Shown: piece by piece, positions 8,573 through 61,167 of the stretch
Layout: the number at the start of each line of letters is the position of its first letter
How positions within the stretch are numbered: position 1 is the first letter of the stretch
Assembly: GCA_964477695.1 (NCBI GenBank)
Contig: CAYZFN010000212.1
Location: 10,974-74,973, forward strand
Direction of reading: 5' to 3'
From: an uncultured Enterobacteriaceae bacterium
GTDB taxonomy: Bacteria; Pseudomonadota; Gammaproteobacteria; Burkholderiales; SG8-39
DNA length: 64,000 nt
The notes under the pieces: generated by a model
The model's input: only the letters and a program-made list of their open reading frames with translations
Databases searched by the model: none
Told to the model about the DNA's origin: nothing
Position numbers and translations under genes: made by a program

Positions 8573-8588
8573 CGGCACGCCGTTTGCA
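8573..8588 (+). promoter_or_regulatory. Sigma-54-type promoter candidate CGGCAC-GCCGT-TTGCA
   Basis: GG (8574-75) N10 GC (8586-87). The -12 element is a perfect TTGCA and the -24 element has GGCAC. Predicted +1 is near 8599, 2 nt before GTG 8601 of the ROK gene, which has no SD. Confidence 0.35.
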
Positions 8589-17155: not shown

Positions 17156-18092
17156 TCGCGCCGCCGAGGATGCCGTTCGGAAGGAACATCACCACGGCCA
17201 CGAGCAGCAGGCCGATCCAGAAATACCAGTACTGCGGATTGACGCCGGAGAACTGGTCGCGTGCGACCAGGTAGAGGATCGCGCCCAGGAGGCCGCCGTA
17301 CAGGCGTCCGGCGCCGCCGAGAATCAGGATCACCAGCACGTCGGCGGAGCGGCCGAACGACAGGACTTCGAGCGATACCGTGGCAGTGGTCTGGGTGAGG
17401 AGTGCGCCGGCGAGGCCGGCCATGACGGCCGCGAGGGCGTACGCCTTGCGCAGGTGCGCCTGACTCGACGCGCCGATCGCCGGCATGCGAACTGCGTTCT
17501 CGCGGATGCCGCGCAGCGCCAGGCCGAGCGGCGAGTGGATGACGCGCCGCGCGACCAGGAAGCAGACGAACAATACCGCGAGCGAATAGGCGTACGCGGT
17601 GCGCCCGTAAAGGTCGAACTTGAAGCCGAGAAGCGGCGCGATGACGAAGCCCTGCAGGCCGTCGGCGCCGCCGGTGAGCGCGCTCGCGCTGTTCGCCGCC
17701 TCGAAGAGCAGCAGGCCGAAGCCGAGGGTCAGCATGATGAGCGCGAGATGCCTGAAGCGCACGATGACATGGCTCGACAGGTAGCCCACCAGCCCCGCCG
17801 CGATGCCCGACGCCACGAGACCGCTGAGCGGCTCGCCGAGAGCGTACTTGGAAAGCAGCCCCGCGGCGTACGCGCCGACGCCGAAATAGGCGGCATGGCC
17901 GAGCGAGACGAGGCCTGCGTAGCCGAGGATCAGGTCGAGCGAAAGGGCGAACAGCGCCGTGATCGCGATCTGGCTCGCAAGCGAGAGATAGCTCGGGGCG
18001 AGCACGAAGGGCGTGAGCGTCGCAAGCCAGAAAGCGACCTCGAGCGGATGCCAGCGCAGCTGGCGCGCGAGCTGGAGATCAGCGCTTGCCAA
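17130..18092 (-). CDS. livM: Branched-chain amino acid ABC transporter permease
   Basis: Multi-TM protein with the LivM-type motif ..LILGYAGLVSLGHAAYFGVGAY... Confidence 0.9.
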   Translation of the reverse strand: MASADLQLARQLRWHPLEVAFWLATLTPFVLAPSYLSLASQIAITALFALSLDLILGYAGLVSLGHAAYFGVGAYAAGLLSKYALGEPLSGLVASGIAAGLVGYLSSHVIVRFRHLALIMLTLGFGLLLFEAANSASALTGGADGLQGFVIAPLLGFKFDLYGRTAYAYSLAVLFVCFLVARRVIHSPLGLALRGIRENAVRMPAIGASSQAHLRKAYALAAVMAGLAGALLTQTTATVSLEVLSFGRSADVLVILILGGAGRLYGGLLGAILYLVARDQFSGVNPQYWYFWIGLLLVAVVMFLPNGILGGASALYKKHQ

Positions 18093-22982: not shown

Positions 22983-23224
22983 GTCTCGAACCTCGTATCG
23001 CCGCTGTTCGCCCGGCGCTCGTAGTCGCGCGCCAGGCGAACCGCATCGTGCTCGACAAGCGCGACGCGGCAGCGCGGCTTCGCCATCGCGACGCGCACGG
23101 CGTGCCGCATCGCGCCCCACTTGCTCGGGAAGTAGGCGACCGCCACGCGGCTCGGGCTGCGCTCGTTGACGCTCCACACGCCGTCGCGCGTGCGCGCCAC
23201 CGAGACGAGCGGCGCGTCGCTCAT
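22979..23224 (-). CDS. Small conserved-looking protein (possibly DUF2188-like)
   Basis: 81 aa (MSDAPLVSVARTRDGVWSVNERSPSRVAVAYFPSKWGAMRHAVRVAM..). ATGA overlaps at both ends couple it to its neighbours. Confidence 0.5.
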   Translation of the reverse strand: MSDAPLVSVARTRDGVWSVNERSPSRVAVAYFPSKWGAMRHAVRVAMAKPRCRVALVEHDAVRLARDYERRANSGDTRFET

Positions 23225-24321
23225 TGGCCGCCTCCCGGCGCCTGCGCGCGGATGACCGCAGGCTTCTCGATCGGCGGGCGGCGGATCTCCTGCTCGAGAC
23301 TCGGCCGCTCGCGCCGCTCGAAGGGCGCGAGCTCGACCGGCGCGCCGCGCTCGATTGCGCGATAGAGCGCCGTGATCACCCGGATGTCGGCCAGGCCTTC
23401 CTCGGCCGAGGGCTCGGGATCGCGGTTCTGCAGCAGGCAATCGGAGAAGTACAGCAGCTCCGGCGCGAACTGATCGCGCTTCGCGAAGCGCCGCTCGCCC
23501 GCCACGTTGCCGTCCAGGGAAAGGCGGTGCTCGAGCGGCTTGGCGTACTCGTAGGCGGGATCGACGGCGAGCTCGCCTTTAGTGCCGATCAGCCGGTACT
23601 CCGAGACCTTGGCCGCGCCGAAGCTGGCGGTGAACGCTGCGAGCCGCTCGTTCGGAAAGCGCAGCACCGCGCTCACCGATTCCTCGACGTCGCCGAGCGC
23701 GCCCGCCGCCACGGCGAATGCCTCGACCGGCTCCTCGCGAAACAACGAGCGCGCCGCGTTGATGCAGTAGATGCCGATGTCGTAGAGGACGCCGCCGCCG
23801 AGCTCGCGCCGGGCGCGGATGTTGTCCGGCACGACCTGCATCGTGAAGGTGGACGTGAACAGGCGCGGCTCGCCGATGCGACCCGAGCGCGCGATCTCGA
23901 TCGCCTCGAGGTTGGCGCGCTCGAAGTGCAGCCGGTAGGCGACCATCAGCTTGACCTTGCTCTCGCGGGCGGCGCGCGCCATCAGCTCGCATTCGGCCTC
24001 GCTGAGCGCCATCGGCTTTTCGCACAGCACGTGGACGCCGGCGCGCGCGGCGCGCTCGGCGTACTCGGCGTGCAGGCTGTTCGGCAGGGCGATGTAGACG
24101 GCATCGATGTCGCCGCTCTTCAGCAGCTCGTCGTATTGCTCGTAGGCGTACACCTTGTCGATCCGGTATTTCTCTGCCAGCGCCTCGCGCTTCAGCGGAT
24201 CTCCCGACACCACGGCGACGAGCTGCGAGTTGCGTCGCGCGTTGCCGAAGGCCGGCAGGACGGCGGCCTGGGCGATGTGCCCGCAACCGACGACCGCATA
24301 ACGAATCAGCCGCTTGGGCAT
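23221..24321 (-). CDS. Gfo/Idh/MocA-family NAD(P)-dependent oxidoreductase
   Basis: N-terminal Rossmann motif IRYAVVGCGHIAQ. EKPMA motif (VLCEKPMALS). Length of about 366 aa. Confidence 0.9.
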   Translation of the reverse strand: MPKRLIRYAVVGCGHIAQAAVLPAFGNARRNSQLVAVVSGDPLKREALAEKYRIDKVYAYEQYDELLKSGDIDAVYIALPNSLHAEYAERAARAGVHVLCEKPMALSEAECELMARAARESKVKLMVAYRLHFERANLEAIEIARSGRIGEPRLFTSTFTMQVVPDNIRARRELGGGVLYDIGIYCINAARSLFREEPVEAFAVAAGALGDVEESVSAVLRFPNERLAAFTASFGAAKVSEYRLIGTKGELAVDPAYEYAKPLEHRLSLDGNVAGERRFAKRDQFAPELLYFSDCLLQNRDPEPSAEEGLADIRVITALYRAIERGAPVELAPFERRERPSLEQEIRRPPIEKPAVIRAQAPGGGQ

Positions 24322-24458
24322 CTAGGCCGCCCGGCGCGCCAGGTCGAGCTCATTCGAGCGCTTGTGCGCCGAATAGAGCTCGACCGGGACGTTGACCAGC
24401 CCGAAGCTGATCGCGCCTTTCCACGGAGCGCGCGCCATTGACCGGTCGCCTCGTCTGG

Positions 24459-24998
24459 CTAGTGGGTCAGGCCCTCGAGCAGCTTCGCCAGATCGTCGGC
24501 GTGCTCTTCCTCCTTGGCGAGGATCTCCTCCATCAGCCGCCGCGTGGTCGGGTCCTCCTGGCCGAAGTAGCTGATCATCTCGCGGTAGCTGTCGATGGCG
24601 ATGCGCTCGGCGACCAGGTCTTCCCGGATCATCTCCTCGAGCGTGTTGCCTTCGACGTACTCCGCATGGCTGCGCGTCACGAGCCCTTCCGGCGCGAAAT
24701 CCGGCGCGCCGCCGAGCTGGGTGATGCGTTCGGCGATCTGGTCGGCATGCTGCTGCTCCTCCTGGGCGTGCTCGAGGAACTCCGCCGCCACGCTTTCCGC
24801 ATGGATGCCTTGCGCCATGTAGTAATGGCGCTTGTAGCGCAGCGTGCAGATGATCTCCGTGGCGAGCGCCTCGTTGAGCAGCCGCAGCACTACGTCCCGG
24901 TCGGCGTGGTAGCCCGGCGTGACCGCGCCCTGGGCGATGTGCTCGCGGGCCCGCCGGCGCAGCGTCTGGATGTCGGAGAGAAAGGCGCCTTGCGTCAT
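24459..24998 (-). CDS. Ferritin-like di-iron protein (bacterioferritin/Dps superfamily)
   Basis: ..LNEALATEIICTLRYKRHY..EFLEHAQEEQQHADQIAERI..EMIREDLVAERIAIDSYRE..EILAKEEEHADDL shows paired E..ExxH-type ligand helices. Start 7 nt after the upstream stop. Confidence 0.85.
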   Translation of the reverse strand: MTQGAFLSDIQTLRRRAREHIAQGAVTPGYHADRDVVLRLLNEALATEIICTLRYKRHYYMAQGIHAESVAAEFLEHAQEEQQHADQIAERITQLGGAPDFAPEGLVTRSHAEYVEGNTLEEMIREDLVAERIAIDSYREMISYFGQEDPTTRRLMEEILAKEEEHADDLAKLLEGLTH

Positions 24999-25005
24999 CG
25001 CGTGC

Positions 25006-25518
25006 TTACTTCGAGGTCGTGGTCGCGCGATTCGCGCCCGCGCCCGTGGCCGCATTGCGCTTGCTGTTGTCGGCCTTCGCGTGCTTCGCCTTGATGTCCG
25101 CCTTGGCGTGGTCGTAGTTCGCCTTCGCTTCCTTCTTGCAGGCGCTCTCTTCCTTGCCCTTCATGCTCTTGCACTTCTGCTCGGCCACCTTGTACTCGTG
25201 CTCGGCCTTCGCTTCGTCGACCTTGCGCTCGTGCGCCGCGGAGGGCTGGTACTTCTGCTCGATCTCGGCCTTCGCGACCTTCTCGTTGCCTTTGGCGTCG
25301 GCTTCGCACACCTCGTGCTCGTTGCCCTTCATCTCCTTGCACTTCGCGATCGCCGCCTTGTAGTCGGCCTTGGCATGGTCCTCGTCGGCCTTCTTCGCCT
25401 GGCGGTCGACCTTCGGCCGGTCCGCGCCGCTCGACGGCGAGGGGGTGGTTTGCGCCTGTGCCGCGCCGGCAAAGGCGAAGGCGACGGCCGCGGCGATGCT
25501 CAACAGTCTGAGTTGCAT
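25006..25518 (-). CDS. Secreted Lys/Ala/Glu-rich protein with two C-x10-C repeats
   Basis: Signal peptide MQLRLLSIAAAVAFAFAGAAQA. Internal duplication DEDHAKADYKAAIAKCKEMKGNEHEVCEADAKGN.. versus DEAKAEHEYKVAEQKCKSMKGKEESACKKEAKAN... AGGAGGA SD. Confidence 0.75.
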   Translation of the reverse strand: MQLRLLSIAAAVAFAFAGAAQAQTTPSPSSGADRPKVDRQAKKADEDHAKADYKAAIAKCKEMKGNEHEVCEADAKGNEKVAKAEIEQKYQPSAAHERKVDEAKAEHEYKVAEQKCKSMKGKEESACKKEAKANYDHAKADIKAKHAKADNSKRNAATGAGANRATTTSK

Positions 25519-25549
25519 GGCTATGTTTCCTCCTAGGTTGTGGGATGCG

Positions 25550-25714
25550 TTAAGGCCTTCTCAGCAGGCCCGCGACGAGCGAGACCAGGAAAAGAACCAC
25601 GAAAACGACGAACAGGATCTTCGCGATCTCCGCGGCTCCCGCGGCGATGCCGGTAAAGCCGAACACGGCTGCGATGATGGCGATGATGAAAAAGGCAAGC
25701 GCCCAGCTCAACAT
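25550..25714 (-). CDS. DUF1328 (YtjA/UPF0391) small membrane protein
   Basis: The 54-aa product [54 protein letters not shown] is near-collinear with E. coli YtjA. GAAGGAG SD. Below the 60-aa ORF-track cutoff as an independent ORF. Confidence 0.85.
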
Positions 25715-25757
25715 GACGAACTCCTTCGTAAATGGTGGGTAAAGCTGGAGAGGGGGC

Positions 25758-25773
25758 AGCAAACCGCGTGCCA
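25758..25773 (-). promoter_or_regulatory. Consensus sigma-54 promoter TGGCAC-GCGGT-TTGCT
   Basis: Perfect match to TGGCACG-N4-TTGCW on the minus strand. Predicted +1 is near 25747, giving a 33-nt leader with an SD before ATG 25714. Confidence 0.6.
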
Positions 25774-25900
25774 AAGCGCGCGGCATGCGCTGGACGGCCT
25801 TTTGTAATCTTGGCGCGCTCGCGGCGGAAGTCGGCCGCGCCGGTAGCGTTTCCGCTACGGGCTGTCCCCGGCATGTCTCCTGCTGCAGGCCAGGTGAGCC

Positions 25901-26926
25901 ATGCGAATCGACGACGACCTGCCGCTGATGGTCTGGACCGCCCGGCCGGACCTCGCGTGCGACTACGTAAGCCGCGCGTGGCTGGATTTCACGGGCTACT
26001 CGCCGGAGCAGGCGCTCGGCCACGGCTGGTCGCGGGCGCTGCATCCTGAAGACCTGGCGCGTTGGCTCGATACATGCGTTCGCGCCTTCGATGCGCGAGA
26101 GCCGTTCGCGCTCGAATACCGCTTGCGCAGGCGCGATGGACAGTACCGATGGGTGCTCGATCGTGCCACACCCCGTGCCGGGAGCGGGCCGTTCGCCGGC
26201 TTCGCCGGCGTATGCGTGGACATCGACGAGGCGAAGCGCGCGCAGCACGAGCTTGCCCGATCGCTCGAGCGCGAGCGCCGGCTGCGCCTCGCGGTGGAGG
26301 AGGCGAGCCGCGCCAAGGACGCGTTCCTCACCGCGGTGCTGAACGAGCTGCAGGCGCCGACGCACGCCATGGCCACGTGGGCGGGGCACTTGCGCAACCG
26401 GCTGAAAGCGGCCGGCGAGGCCGGGGCGCTCGAGTCGATCGAGCGCAACGCCCGGCTGCAGAGCCGCATCATCGCCAACCTGCAGCAGCTTTCGCAGCCC
26501 GGACATGCGCCGCTCGCGCACGCGCTGGAGGAGCCGCTGCTCTCGGGCGTGCGGGTGCTGCTCGTCGAGGATGACGCCGCGGCGCGCGAGCTGCTCGTCA
26601 AGGTGCTGCGTGTCGCGGGCGCCGAAACGCGGGCCGCGGCCTCGAGCGCCGAAGCGCTCGACGCCCTCGGCGAATGGCGACCCGACATCGTGCTATCCGA
26701 TCTCGGCATGCGCGGCGACGATGGTTACGTGCTGATTCGTGCCGTGCGCGCGCTGCCAGCGGAGCGCGGCGGCTGTGTCCCGGCCGCCGCCTTGACCGTG
26801 GCCACGGAACCGCAGGCGCGCAACCGCGCAGCGGCAGCCGGCTACGACGCGCAACTCGCCAAGCCGGTCGAGCCGGTCGCGCTGCTCGCGACGGTGGCAC
26901 GCCTCGTGCAACCGGCAAGCTTTTAG
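25901..26926 (+). CDS. PAS - degenerate DHp (His replaced by Asn, no ATPase domain) - receiver protein
   Basis: PAS domain (..[32 protein letters not shown]..). The DHp-like helix [25 protein letters not shown] sits where hybrid kinases in this window have ..SHELR.P... There are no N/G boxes. An intact REC follows ([26 protein letters not shown]). Confidence 0.85.
26895..26910 (+). promoter_or_regulatory. Sigma-54-type promoter candidate TGGCAC-GCCTC-GTGCA
   Basis: Perfect -24 element, correct GG-N10-GC spacing, and a -12 element GTGCA with one mismatch. Predicted +1 is near 26921, giving a 30-nt leader to ATG 26951. Confidence 0.45.
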
Positions 26927-26950
26927 AGAGACGTCAGCTAAAGGATGGCG

Positions 26951-27118
26951 ATGAATCGAGACAAGCCGCAGGACCGCTGGCCCTTCGATCCGATGCAGCC
27001 CGGCGACCACGAGCCGGCGCGGCCGGCCGAGGAGGTCGAGCCGGTACAGAAGCAGACCGGCCGGGGCAAGACGCAGCCGTCGCCCGACTACCGCAGATCC
27101 GAGGAGAAGCCGAAGTGA
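26951..27118 (+). CDS. Small hydrophilic Pro/Glu/Asp/Lys-rich protein (hydrophilin-like), not in the ORF track
   Basis: MNRDKPQDRWPFDPMQPGDHEPARPAEEVEPVQKQTGRGKTQPSPDYRRSEEKPK. About 90 percent of codons end in G/C. An AAGGA SD lies 5 nt upstream. The stop overlaps the BON start as GTGA. An alternative ATG lies at 26945. Confidence 0.4.
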   Translation: MNRDKPQDRWPFDPMQPGDHEPARPAEEVEPVQKQTGRGKTQPSPDYRRSEEKPK

Positions 27119-28643: not shown

Positions 28644-30017
28644 CTAAGCGCCCCGCCGCATATCGGCGCGGCGCACGTCCACGCTGGGCATGCGCATGAG
28701 CGCGCGATACTTGGTGATGGTGCGCCTTGCAACTCTCAGGCCCTGCTGCGCGAGCAGGCGCGCGAGCTCGGCGTCGGAGAGCGGCGCACGCGGATCCTCG
28801 GCGGCGATGAGCTCCTTCATCACCGCGCGCACCGCGGTGGCCGAGGCGGCGCCGCCGTTTTCCGTGGCCAGGCGGCGCGAGAAGAAATGCTTGAACTCGA
28901 AGAGGCCGCGCGGGGTCGCCATGTACTTGTTGTTGGTCACGCGGCACACCGTCGACTCGTGCAGCCCGAGCTCGCCGGCGATGAGCTTCAGCGTGAGCGG
29001 CTTCATCGCCACCTCGCCGTACTCGAAGAACCCGCGCTGGCGCGCGACGATGGCGTCGGCGACGCGCTGGATGGTCGCGAAGCGCTGCTCGATGGAGCGC
29101 AGCAGCCAGCGCGCCTCCTGCAGGTGGCGGGCGAGGGACTGGTTCGAGCCCTTGCTCGAGAGCGCATCGGCATACGCCCGGTTGAGGCGCACGCGCGGCA
29201 GCGAAGCCGGGTTGATGATCGCCACCCAGCGGTCGCGCGCCTTCTTGACGATGACGTCGGGCACGACATAGCGCGCCTCCTGCGGGCCGAAGCGATGGCC
29301 GGGGCGCGGGTCGAGCGAGCGGATGAGCGCCCGCGCCACGTGCAGCATCTTCTCGTCGCAGCCGGCGGCGTGCTGCAGGCGGGCCCATTCGCGGTTGGCG
29401 AGCAGGCTGAGGTTGCCCTTGACGATGCGCAGCGCCACGTCGCGCCCGGCCGTTTCCGGCGGCAGCGCGTTCAGCTGCAGGGCGAGGCATTCCTCGAGCG
29501 AGCGCGCGCCGACGCCGGCCGGGTCGAGGCTTTGCACGAGGCGCAACGCGGCGCCGAAGTCCTCGGCCCGCACGTCCTGTTCCGGCGGCACGAGCGCCGC
29601 CAGCTCGTCGAACGAGAGCTTGAAATAGCCGTCGTCGTCCAGGCTGTCGATGATCATCTGCGCGAGGGCGCGGTCGCGGTCGCCCATCGGCGAGATCATG
29701 AGCTGCTCCCTCAGGTGCTGCTGCAGGGTGGGCTGGCCGTCGGCCGCGCCGCCCCAGTCGTCCTGCTCACGCTCGAGCGATCCACCCGAGCCGGTCGGCT
29801 CCTGCGGCACGACGATGTCGTCGACCGCGGCCGCGTCGCGCAGCGGCGTCGCTTCCGCCGCCTCGGGGTTCTCCTCGAGAAAGGGGTTGGCCGCGAGGGC
29901 CTGTTCCATCTCCTGCGCGAACTCGAGCGCCGACATCTGCAGCAGCTTGAGCGCCTGCTGCACCTGCGGTGTGAGGGTGAGATGCTGGCGAAGACGTAGC
30001 GCGATGGCGGGGGACAT
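28644..30017 (-). CDS. rpoN: RNA polymerase sigma-54 factor
   Basis: Region I LRLRQHLTLTPQVQQALKLLQMSALEF. C-terminal HTH and RpoN box ARRTITKYR. Length of about 457 aa. ATG 30017 with an AAGGA SD. Confidence 0.95.
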   Translation of the reverse strand: MSPAIALRLRQHLTLTPQVQQALKLLQMSALEFAQEMEQALAANPFLEENPEAAEATPLRDAAAVDDIVVPQEPTGSGGSLEREQDDWGGAADGQPTLQQHLREQLMISPMGDRDRALAQMIIDSLDDDGYFKLSFDELAALVPPEQDVRAEDFGAALRLVQSLDPAGVGARSLEECLALQLNALPPETAGRDVALRIVKGNLSLLANREWARLQHAAGCDEKMLHVARALIRSLDPRPGHRFGPQEARYVVPDVIVKKARDRWVAIINPASLPRVRLNRAYADALSSKGSNQSLARHLQEARWLLRSIEQRFATIQRVADAIVARQRGFFEYGEVAMKPLTLKLIAGELGLHESTVCRVTNNKYMATPRGLFEFKHFFSRRLATENGGAASATAVRAVMKELIAAEDPRAPLSDAELARLLAQQGLRVARRTITKYRALMRMPSVDVRRADMRRGA

Positions 30018-30048: not shown

Positions 30049-30064
30049 TGCAGGGAACGTGCCA
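30049..30064 (-). promoter_or_regulatory. Sigma-54-type promoter candidate TGGCAC-GTTCC-CTGCA upstream of rpoN
   Basis: Perfect -24 element, correct GG-N10-GC spacing, and a -12 element CTGCA with one mismatch. Predicted +1 is near 30038, giving a 21-nt leader containing the SD. Confidence 0.5.
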
Positions 30065-30174
30065 GCCGCCCGCCGAAGGCCCGCGCCGACCGGCTCGCCC
30101 GCTTGCGCTGTAACCGTTTCCCAGGCCCGGTAGCAATTACCGCGCGCGGGCTCGGGTTTTGCTGAGCCGCGCGC

Positions 30175-32836: not shown

Positions 32837-34219
<1,383 letters not shown>

Positions 34220-60976: not shown

Positions 60977-61141
60977 CTACAGGTCGTCGACCCGCTTGTC
61001 CTTCGCAGGCTCGGTCCGCGGGTTGCGGCCCGATTGCCGGGGATCCTGGCCGCGTGGGCCCTTGTCCATCTCCGGCTCGACGGGCAGGTTGTCGGCGGTC
61101 GGCTCGTCCGGGGCGTGCTTGGGATCGCGATCTCGGTCCAT
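60977..61141 (-). CDS. Small hydrophilic Asp/Pro/Lys/Arg-rich protein (hydrophilin-like), not in the ORF track
   Basis: MDRDRDPKHAPDEPTADNLPVEPEMDKGPRGQDPRQSGRNPRTEPAKDKRVDDL. 47 of 54 codons end in G/C. No SD. Lies 25 nt downstream of the cyclase stop. Confidence 0.4.
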   Translation of the reverse strand: MDRDRDPKHAPDEPTADNLPVEPEMDKGPRGQDPRQSGRNPRTEPAKDKRVDDL

Positions 61142-61151
61142 GGCCGCGCGG

Positions 61152-61167
61152 TGCAAGGCTCGTGCCT
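61152..61167 (-). promoter_or_regulatory. Sigma-54-type promoter candidate AGGCAC-GAGCC-TTGCA
   Basis: GGCAC at -24, a perfect TTGCA at -12, correct GG-N10-GC spacing. It overlaps the cyclase stop codon. Predicted +1 falls on the A of ATG 61141. Confidence 0.45.

Follow-up and report, generated by a model that had tools for sequence, protein, structure and literature searches.

What reads a consensus sigma-54 promoter box that stands in front of a small operon in a soil bacterium without RpoS, and what does this operon contribute to the cell? The question is raised by a 64-kb window, the whole stretch of 64,000 nucleotides (nt) analysed here, which lies on a 76-kb contig (C212) of a Burkholderiales metagenome-assembled genome (MAG). 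The MAG comprises 3.94 Mb and is 83% complete, so that gene absences carry some uncertainty. The box, termed P1, is a -24/-12 element with the sequence TGGCACGCGGTTTGCT at positions 25773..25758 on the minus strand (GG at 25772-25771, GC at 25760-25759), and precedes genes for a small membrane protein of the DUF1328 family, a secreted four-cysteine protein, and a Dps-like protein. P1 is very probably a real, conserved sigma-54 promoter. As a single promoter it is ordinary and represents a known kind of element; its value lies in being the clearest point of entry to a conserved module comprising a second rpoN gene, an NtrC-type activator gene, and the DUF1328, Dps-like, Ku and other genes. The best explanation of the whole, which we consider likely, is a functional P1 that gives rise to one operon mRNA under the control of an activator and a second sigma-54 factor (RpoN2), both encoded in the surrounding gene island, with an output in stress protection or dormancy.

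The P1 box and the operon downstream

P1 agrees with the 16-nt consensus TGGCACG-N4-TTGCW at each of its 12 defined positions, with the GG and GC dinucleotides 10 nt apart, as had been claimed in a sequence-only reading of this DNA. It is the only zero-mismatch site in the 64-kb window, as compared to 0.03 expected from dinucleotide-preserving shuffles (a match occurred in 3 of 100). Boxes with at most one mismatch number five versus 0.53 expected, a count reached by none of the shuffles. Genome-wide, 28 sites show at most one mismatch when GG and GC are held fixed, and four, P1 included, are perfect. Type IV pilin genes, which are classical targets of sigma-54, follow two of the other three perfect boxes at a distance of 61-64 nt, indicating that the scan recovers true sites.

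The end of the P1 box is separated by 43 nt from the ATG of the DUF1328 gene on the same strand, within a divergent intergenic region of 186 bp. Transcription is predicted to start at about 25747, some 12 nt past the GC, giving a leader of 33 nt. The Shine-Dalgarno sequence GAAGGAG (25721..25727, minus strand) is located 6 nt 5' of the ATG, and its AGGAG core is invariant in the alignment of relatives. Neither a sigma-70-like promoter nor an intrinsic terminator was predicted between 24200 and 26000, and no Rfam match suggestive of a structured RNA was found in the leader or the rest of the window.

To assess conservation, related loci were gathered by means of orthologues of the third operon gene, yielding 23 distinct orthologous promoters from related Burkholderiales MAGs, which were aligned on the box. 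A GG-N10-GC box occurs 39-53 nt before the DUF1328 ATG in every locus where DUF1328 precedes gene 3. The GGCA and TGCT elements are invariant in all 23 loci (2.0 bits), as compared to 0.8 bits at the four spacer positions and 0.42 bits at 50 flanking positions. Since the -24 and -12 elements are kept while spacer and flanks drift, P1 is more than a chance motif; judged from the alignment, a working -24/-12 promoter would be expected to leave such a footprint, which general conservation does not explain.

The first gene of the operon (25550..25714, minus strand) codes for a protein of 54 amino acids (aa) of the DUF1328/YtjA family (PF07043, E 1.3e-15, 57.9 bits at a cut-off of 27; NCBIfam NF010226 (PRK13682.1-1), 86.8 bits at a cut-off of 59). 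Gene 2 (25006..25518, minus strand) starts 31 nt past the stop codon of gene 1 and encodes a Lys/Glu/Ala-rich protein of 170 aa with a signal peptide and two repeats, each carrying a C-x10-C pair. Even with the threshold relaxed to E = 5, neither Pfam nor NCBIfam returned a family for it; a search of metagenomic proteins returned 295 homologues, all of them unnamed as a family. C60, C71, C116 and C127, as well as the AQAQ end of the signal peptide, are invariant among 22 sequences. The few members of this family that carry an organism name are from Burkholderiales MAGs.

Gene 3 (24459..24998, minus strand) follows after 7 nt. Its 179-aa product is a Dps-like protein of the type of Pseudomonas aeruginosa PA4880 (PF00210, E 1e-28), which aligns over its full length with the "Dps-like protein" of PDB entry 8W1D (E 1e-77; query residues 7-177 on chain residues 6-176). 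PA4880 forms a 12-mer of the Dps fold with bacterioferritin-type ferroxidase centres, and endonuclease activity has been reported for it (PMC11150526). The layout proposed in the sequence-only reading, with the 33-nt leader, the GAAGGAG motif, the 54-aa DUF1328 gene (25714..25550) and following genes at 31 and 7 nt, thus agrees with our analysis. Its description as a three-gene "ferritin-like" operon holds with respect to gene order and needs revision in that the third product is a PA4880-type Dps-like protein and the operon ancestrally continues into a Ku gene.

Downstream of gene 3, a Ku gene remnant of 38 codons (24322..24438, minus strand) has its stop codon abutting the ATG of a gene for an oxidoreductase of the Gfo/Idh/MocA family. 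The first 34 residues of the remnant share 74-85% sequence identity with the N-terminus of the relatives' Ku proteins, and the reading frame is cut after residue 34 in the MAG assembly, either as a true truncation or as an assembly artefact. A Ku gene begins within a few nt of the stop codon of the Dps-like gene in 24 relatives' loci; of these, 22 extend to the end of the gene, and in all 22 it is of full length (270-295 aa). Comparison of these sequences indicates that the ancestral operon is DUF1328/Cys-repeat/DpsL/Ku. Three distant Ku paralogues are encoded elsewhere in the genome, two on contig C144 and one on C68. The Gfo/Idh/MocA gene (23221..24321, minus strand; PF01408, PF22725) starts right after the stop codon of the Ku stub with no terminator predicted, and is possibly co-transcribed with the operon; in the one relative examined in this respect (L048), a CBS-domain gene follows Ku in its place. 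The earlier suggestion of a single transcript is supported by the tight spacing, by the lack of a predicted terminator or sigma-70 promoter, and by the gene order, which is conserved in relatives.

In eight of the related loci (L010, L011, L038, L047-L049, L051, L052), a second perfect or near-perfect box, TGGCACGyGCTTTGCA, is present between DUF1328 and the next gene. The downstream genes of these relatives thus have a promoter of their own; the second box is absent from the window.

RpoN2 and an NtrC-type activator in a sigma-54-rich island

The operon lies close to a gene for an rpoN paralogue, RpoN2 (28644..30017, minus strand; 457 aa), with the domains Sigma54_AID, CBD and DBD. RpoN2 is about 50% identical to the housekeeping RpoN (RpoN1), whose gene is split over contigs C25 and C20. 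In a sample of 24 genomes of the genus, orthologues of RpoN2 sharing 80-89% identity are present in 16. Region I, the helix-turn-helix and the RpoN box are intact, the latter reading ARRTITKYR, as compared to ARRTIAKYR in RpoN1, a difference of one residue. With its recognition motifs intact, RpoN2 should read the same class of promoters and should still require an activator. The rpoN2 gene itself is preceded by a sigma-54 box, TGGCACGTTCCCTGCA (30049..30064, minus strand), 31 nt 5' of its ATG; this promoter is invariant as TGGCA[CT][GA]-N4-xTGCAG in the 16 relatives. In the intergenic region between rpoN2 and ligD (30049-30174), two GG-N10-GC boxes are arranged back to back, TGGCACGTTCCCTGCA toward rpoN2 and GGGCTCGGGTTTTGCT toward ligD, with a dyad, GTAATTGCTAC (30130-30140), between them; all three elements are kept in 16 relatives.

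Counting orthologues above 80% identity, the operon was detected in 10 of the 16 RpoN2-positive and in none of the 8 RpoN2-negative genomes (Fisher p = 0.006), and on all eight contigs that carry both, it is located 4-8 kb from rpoN2. A candidate activator gene is likewise linked. The genome codes for about nine proteins with a Sigma54_activat domain, two of them on this contig, and both had been put forward in the sequence-only reading as activators of P1. The first, an NtrC-type response regulator and enhancer-binding protein (32837..34219, plus strand; REC, Sigma54_activat and HTH_8 domains), is favoured by co-occurrence and by linkage to rpoN2: orthologues exist in 14 of the 16 RpoN2-positive genomes, in the 13 located cases on the same contig as rpoN2 at a distance of 3-5 kb, and are absent from the four RpoN2-negative genomes of more than 90% completeness (Fisher p = 0.0007). 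The second, a GlrR-like protein (1447-2832), was rejected as a partner of P1, since its orthologues are also found in genomes that lack RpoN2 and the island.

Besides these genes, the island comprises ligD, divergent from rpoN2, DUF883 and holin-like genes, genes for hybrid kinases with PAS domains, a BON lipoprotein gene, a DUF4383 gene, and, from reading of the sequence, a putative superoxide dismutase gene. Seven of the 28 near-consensus boxes of the genome are found on this 76-kb contig, which makes up 1.9% of the genome (P = 8e-7), and the boxes in the island are correctly oriented before rpoN2, a hydrophilic open reading frame (ORF) with the BON gene, the gene of an EF-hand protein, and other genes.

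No RpoS was detected in the genus, as none of 19 genomes contains a protein that reaches the TIGR02394 cut-off of 379 bits, the best matches being RpoD proteins at about 275 bits; in contrast, RpoS is present in 7 of 12 genomes of other families of the order (429-455 bits). The lack of RpoS in the genus is fitting for a stress role of the sigma-54 regulon. An out-group genome (G030), which also lacks RpoS, harbors an rpoN paralogue beside ferritin-like and DUF1328 genes.

The box and its conservation, the genes of the operon, and their linkage to and co-occurrence with rpoN2 are observed; the start site, the acting sigma-54, the acting activator and the signal are inferred as follows. P1 would direct the synthesis of one mRNA from about 25747 that covers the genes of the DUF1328, four-cysteine and Dps-like proteins, ancestrally also Ku, and that perhaps extends into the Gfo/Idh/MocA gene. 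Sigma-54 promoters in general are closed until an AAA+ activator acts, and P1 would accordingly be silent until its closed complex is remodelled by such an enhancer-binding protein. The best candidate for this task is the NtrC-type regulator of the island (32837-34219), presumably phosphorylated via the neighboring PAS hybrid kinases, and the most likely sigma factor is RpoN2. The conserved sigma-54 box in front of its own gene suggests that RpoN2 may amplify itself, by positive feedback or within a cascade. In this view, the operon would be one output of a stress or dormancy regulon which is run by sigma-54 and extends to the protection of iron and DNA, to end-joining repair, and to envelope proteins.

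The divergent control region and the sigma factor at P1

The 186-bp intergenic region contains a palindrome, GTAGCGGAAACGCTAC (GTAG-N8-CTAC; 25843..25858), 70 nt upstream of the P1 box, which is a candidate site for a regulator or enhancer-binding protein. It is kept as GTAG-N8-C[TG]AC in 22 of the 23 orthologous regions, and GTAG-N8-CTAC occurs only once on the contig. Beyond it, a divergent sigma-54-type box termed P2, CGGCATGTCTCCTGCT (25869..25884, plus strand), faces a gene coding for a protein with PAS, DHp-like and receiver modules (25901..26926, plus strand; PAS_3 and Response_reg). This protein lacks a HATPase domain and carries Asn in place of the expected phospho-accepting His; presumably kinase-dead, it might modulate the phosphorelay when produced from P2. 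By script, the P2 pattern xGGCA[CT][GA]-N4-xTGC[AT] was recognized in 21 of 23 relatives, among them the atypical locus L009, where it is 27 nt from the palindrome. The alignment columns GCA and TGCC are invariant. From the P2 box to the start codon of the PAS-receiver gene, there are 10-12 nt in most relatives and 16 nt here.

The sequence-only reading had placed an inverted repeat at enhancer distance from P1. The repeat is present and widely conserved; it starts at 25843 rather than 25844, and its spacing is fixed with respect to P2. In 20 of 21 loci the palindrome is 10-14 nt, mostly 11 nt, from P2, as compared to 40-102 nt from P1 with no helical phasing. Due to this fixed distance to P2 and variable distance to P1, a role as the P1 enhancer is uncertain. 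Between palindrome and P1, the relatives possess further blocks, GTAGTTCTTAC and GTTACA, which resemble the conserved GGTAATTGCTAC...TTACA upstream of rpoN2. The palindrome might therefore be the operator or activator site of P2, with P1 being activated via GTAr-N3-yTAC and TTACA blocks that are degenerate in the present sequence; we rate this possibility only a little below even. On the other hand, the centre of the palindrome is at about -104 from P1 and about -45 from P2. The activator sequences of sigma-54 promoters are usually found 70-150 nt upstream, so that the former is a typical and the latter an unusually close enhancer position. One palindrome can, moreover, serve two divergent promoters, and of the 18 occurrences of the strict dyad GTAr-N3-yTAC in the genome, a single one is on the contig, in the rpoN2-ligD intergenic region. 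An enhancer motif common to all promoters of the island was sought and could not be defined in this genome, being visible only in relatives.

Several findings weigh against the favoured explanation, in which P1 is activated by the island regulator and read by RpoN2. Apart from the rigid spacing of the palindrome to P2 and not to P1, the 11-bp dyad common to the region upstream of rpoN2 and the relatives' regions upstream of DUF1328 is degenerate at P1 here. Six RpoN2-positive genomes lack the operon, and one RpoN2-negative genome, 64% complete, carries the 32837-34219 activator, as the sole exception of its kind. In a sample of the order, 24 of 28 DUF1328 genes of other families are without a sigma-54 box. 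The rpoN2 gene of Ralstonia, which has a sigma-54 box as well, depends on rpoN1 for its expression, and the role of its product has been called enigmatic (Ray et al. 2015, PMC4371752). Finally, as RpoN2 retains region I, the helix-turn-helix and a near-identical RpoN box, the housekeeping RpoN could equally read P1.

The last two points also favour the view that P1 is real but is read by the housekeeping RpoN, or by either of the two sigma-54 factors, with RpoN2 being a mere neighbor or amplifier. The boxes of the island resemble ordinary sigma-54 boxes such as those of the pilin genes, and a second DUF1328 gene outside the island, on contig C14, is also boxed. Nevertheless, the operon is absent from all eight RpoN2-negative genomes and, where present, is always near rpoN2, and the neighborhood of rpoN2 and DUF1328 recurs across families; we thus regard service by the housekeeping RpoN as rather unlikely, and retain RpoN2 as the more likely sigma factor. 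That the P1 box is a chance or vestigial sequence and the operon is read from an unrecognized promoter of the sigma-70 family or by read-through is highly improbable, since the box, even if a chance 16-mer did arise in the few shuffles mentioned above, keeps its individual positions across 23 promoters that have otherwise diverged, the prediction gave no sigma-70-like site nearby, and read-through is impossible because the upstream gene is divergent.

Related systems and further promoter boxes

The sigma-S regulon of E. coli includes dps, osmY and yqjD/elaB. The functional classes found here are similar, namely Dps-type, BON/OsmY-like lipoprotein, DUF883/YqjD-like and small membrane proteins, whereas promoter class and mechanism are entirely different and RpoS is missing from this genus. 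As for the promoter architecture, glnAp2 with NtrC and pspA with PspF are known to combine a GG-N10-GC box with a dyad upstream, placed at enhancer distance, and with an AAA+ activator of the NtrC type. The present locus shares the box and an activator encoded nearby, and has a dyad at such a distance as a candidate enhancer, but differs in its targets for stationary-phase-type protection, in the two back-to-back promoters within 186 bp, and in the duplicated sigma factor. A further parallel is found in Burkholderia pseudomallei, which probably has RpoS as well. Its RpoN2 is needed at 48-72 h for expression of katE, a gene with an RpoN box (Diep et al. 2015, PMC4745423), and is thus also a second sigma-54 serving an oxidative-stress gene of late stationary phase; in contrast to our locus, a single target is involved, and no island, Dps-like gene or DUF1328 gene was described (PMC4745423). 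Specialized RpoN paralogues with restricted, partly stress-related regulons have likewise been reported from Rhodobacter sphaeroides (cited in PMC4371752) and as plasmid-encoded RpoNp from Bradyrhizobium sp. DOA9 (PMC13207237), in other lineages and for other targets, with no link to DUF1328, Dps-like or Ku proteins reported.

The closest resemblance is to the rpoN2 locus of Ralstonia. As judged from its sequence, rpoN2 on the megaplasmid of Ralstonia solanacearum OE1-1 appears to have as neighbors two genes for sigma-54 activators, one for a hybrid kinase, and a DUF1328 gene with a DUF883-like gene after it. Both loci thus comprise a second sigma-54 gene with its own box, in the company of genes for enhancer-binding proteins, for a hybrid kinase, and for proteins of the DUF1328 and DUF883-like types; they differ in that the RpoN2 proteins are only about 50% identical, and in that Dps-like, Ku and LigD genes are lacking in the 19 kb of the Ralstonia locus examined. 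About 60 nt upstream of the Ralstonia DUF1328 gene, directly after the activator stop codon, there is a GG-N10-GC box, CGGTACGCGCCTTGCT (L144, 4841-4856, minus strand). This gene is a candidate sigma-54 target which is not contained in the published Ralstonia list (PMC4371752).

In a phylogenetic tree, the housekeeping RpoN proteins of many families form one clade (support 100/99, with a warning of long branches), whereas RpoN2 of the genus is placed opposite to it, together with its Ralstonia counterpart and a ferritin-adjacent paralogue from a further family (97/89, subject to the same long-branch caveat). DUF1328 genes are present within 7 kb of a second rpoN gene in six further genomes from three other families. 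Among DUF1328 genes of other families, 4 of 28 have a box within 150 nt, as compared to 1.2% expected (P = 3e-5 when the gene of the window is counted, i.e. 5 of 29). The idea that sigma-54 controls DUF1328 genes in general was rejected on these numbers, well above expectation though they are, and the correlation of boxed DUF1328 genes with a second rpoN is weak (2 of 4, with one DUF1328 copy per genome sampled). In the literature, we found no prior description of DUF1328 in connection with sigma-54, of sigma-54 in connection with LigD or non-homologous end joining, or of such an rpoN2 regulon in Burkholderiales.

With this module, the second sigma-54 of Burkholderiales, the function of which has been called enigmatic (PMC4371752), gains a regulon that is concrete and testable. 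The module also suggests how a lineage without RpoS organizes stationary-phase-type protection, namely by an activator-gated sigma-54 circuit that is kept tightly off until signalled, and it connects DUF1328 and the secreted four-cysteine protein, both of them families without known function, with end-joining repair and with the protection of iron and DNA. Going further, and tentatively, RpoN2 with its own NtrC-type activator may have taken over the role of the general stress and dormancy sigma factor in this lineage, driving Dps-like, Ku/LigD, BON, DUF883, DUF1328 and hydrophilin genes from -24/-12 promoters, a sizeable share of which would give leaderless transcripts; the module, which is also seen in Ralstonia and in no fewer than three further families, would then account for the "enigmatic" RpoN2 of Burkholderiales. 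We hold this broader proposal to be possible, though somewhat less probable than not.

The notion of leaderless transcripts comes from the distance between box and start codon. At 6 of the 28 near-consensus boxes (21%, as compared to 3.6% for random GG-N10-GC sites; P = 4e-4), the start codon is 10-12 nt past the box, corresponding to predicted positions +1 to +3, and the same short spacing is observed for ligD, whose box is conserved, and for the PAS-receiver gene of most relatives. As far as can be judged from such spacing, it suggests leaderless mRNAs from sigma-54 promoters. The sites concerned are located in the window at 8573-8588 (plus strand), 25869-25884 (plus strand; 16 nt here), 30148-30163 (plus strand) and 61152-61167 (minus strand), and on contigs C46, C157, C39 and C233.

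The box TGGCACGCCTCGTGCA (26895..26910, plus strand; one mismatch) is followed after 34 nt by the ATG of a hydrophilic ORF of 57 aa and then by the BON lipoprotein gene (BON, E 1e-16). Two small hydrophilic ORFs of 54-57 aa, rich in Pro, Glu, Asp and Lys (26945-27118, plus strand, and 60977-61141, minus strand), each follow a sigma-54 box; neither belongs to a Pfam family. Elsewhere in the genome, near-consensus boxes precede another DUF883 gene, a hydrophilin-like ORF, a topoisomerase IB gene, and the gene of a protein with weak, sub-threshold similarity to DUF892/YciF. The second DUF1328 gene (C14, about 17860-18011, plus strand), outside the island, is likewise preceded by a sigma-54-type box, CGGCATGCCCTTTGCA, at a distance of about 33 nt from the ATG.

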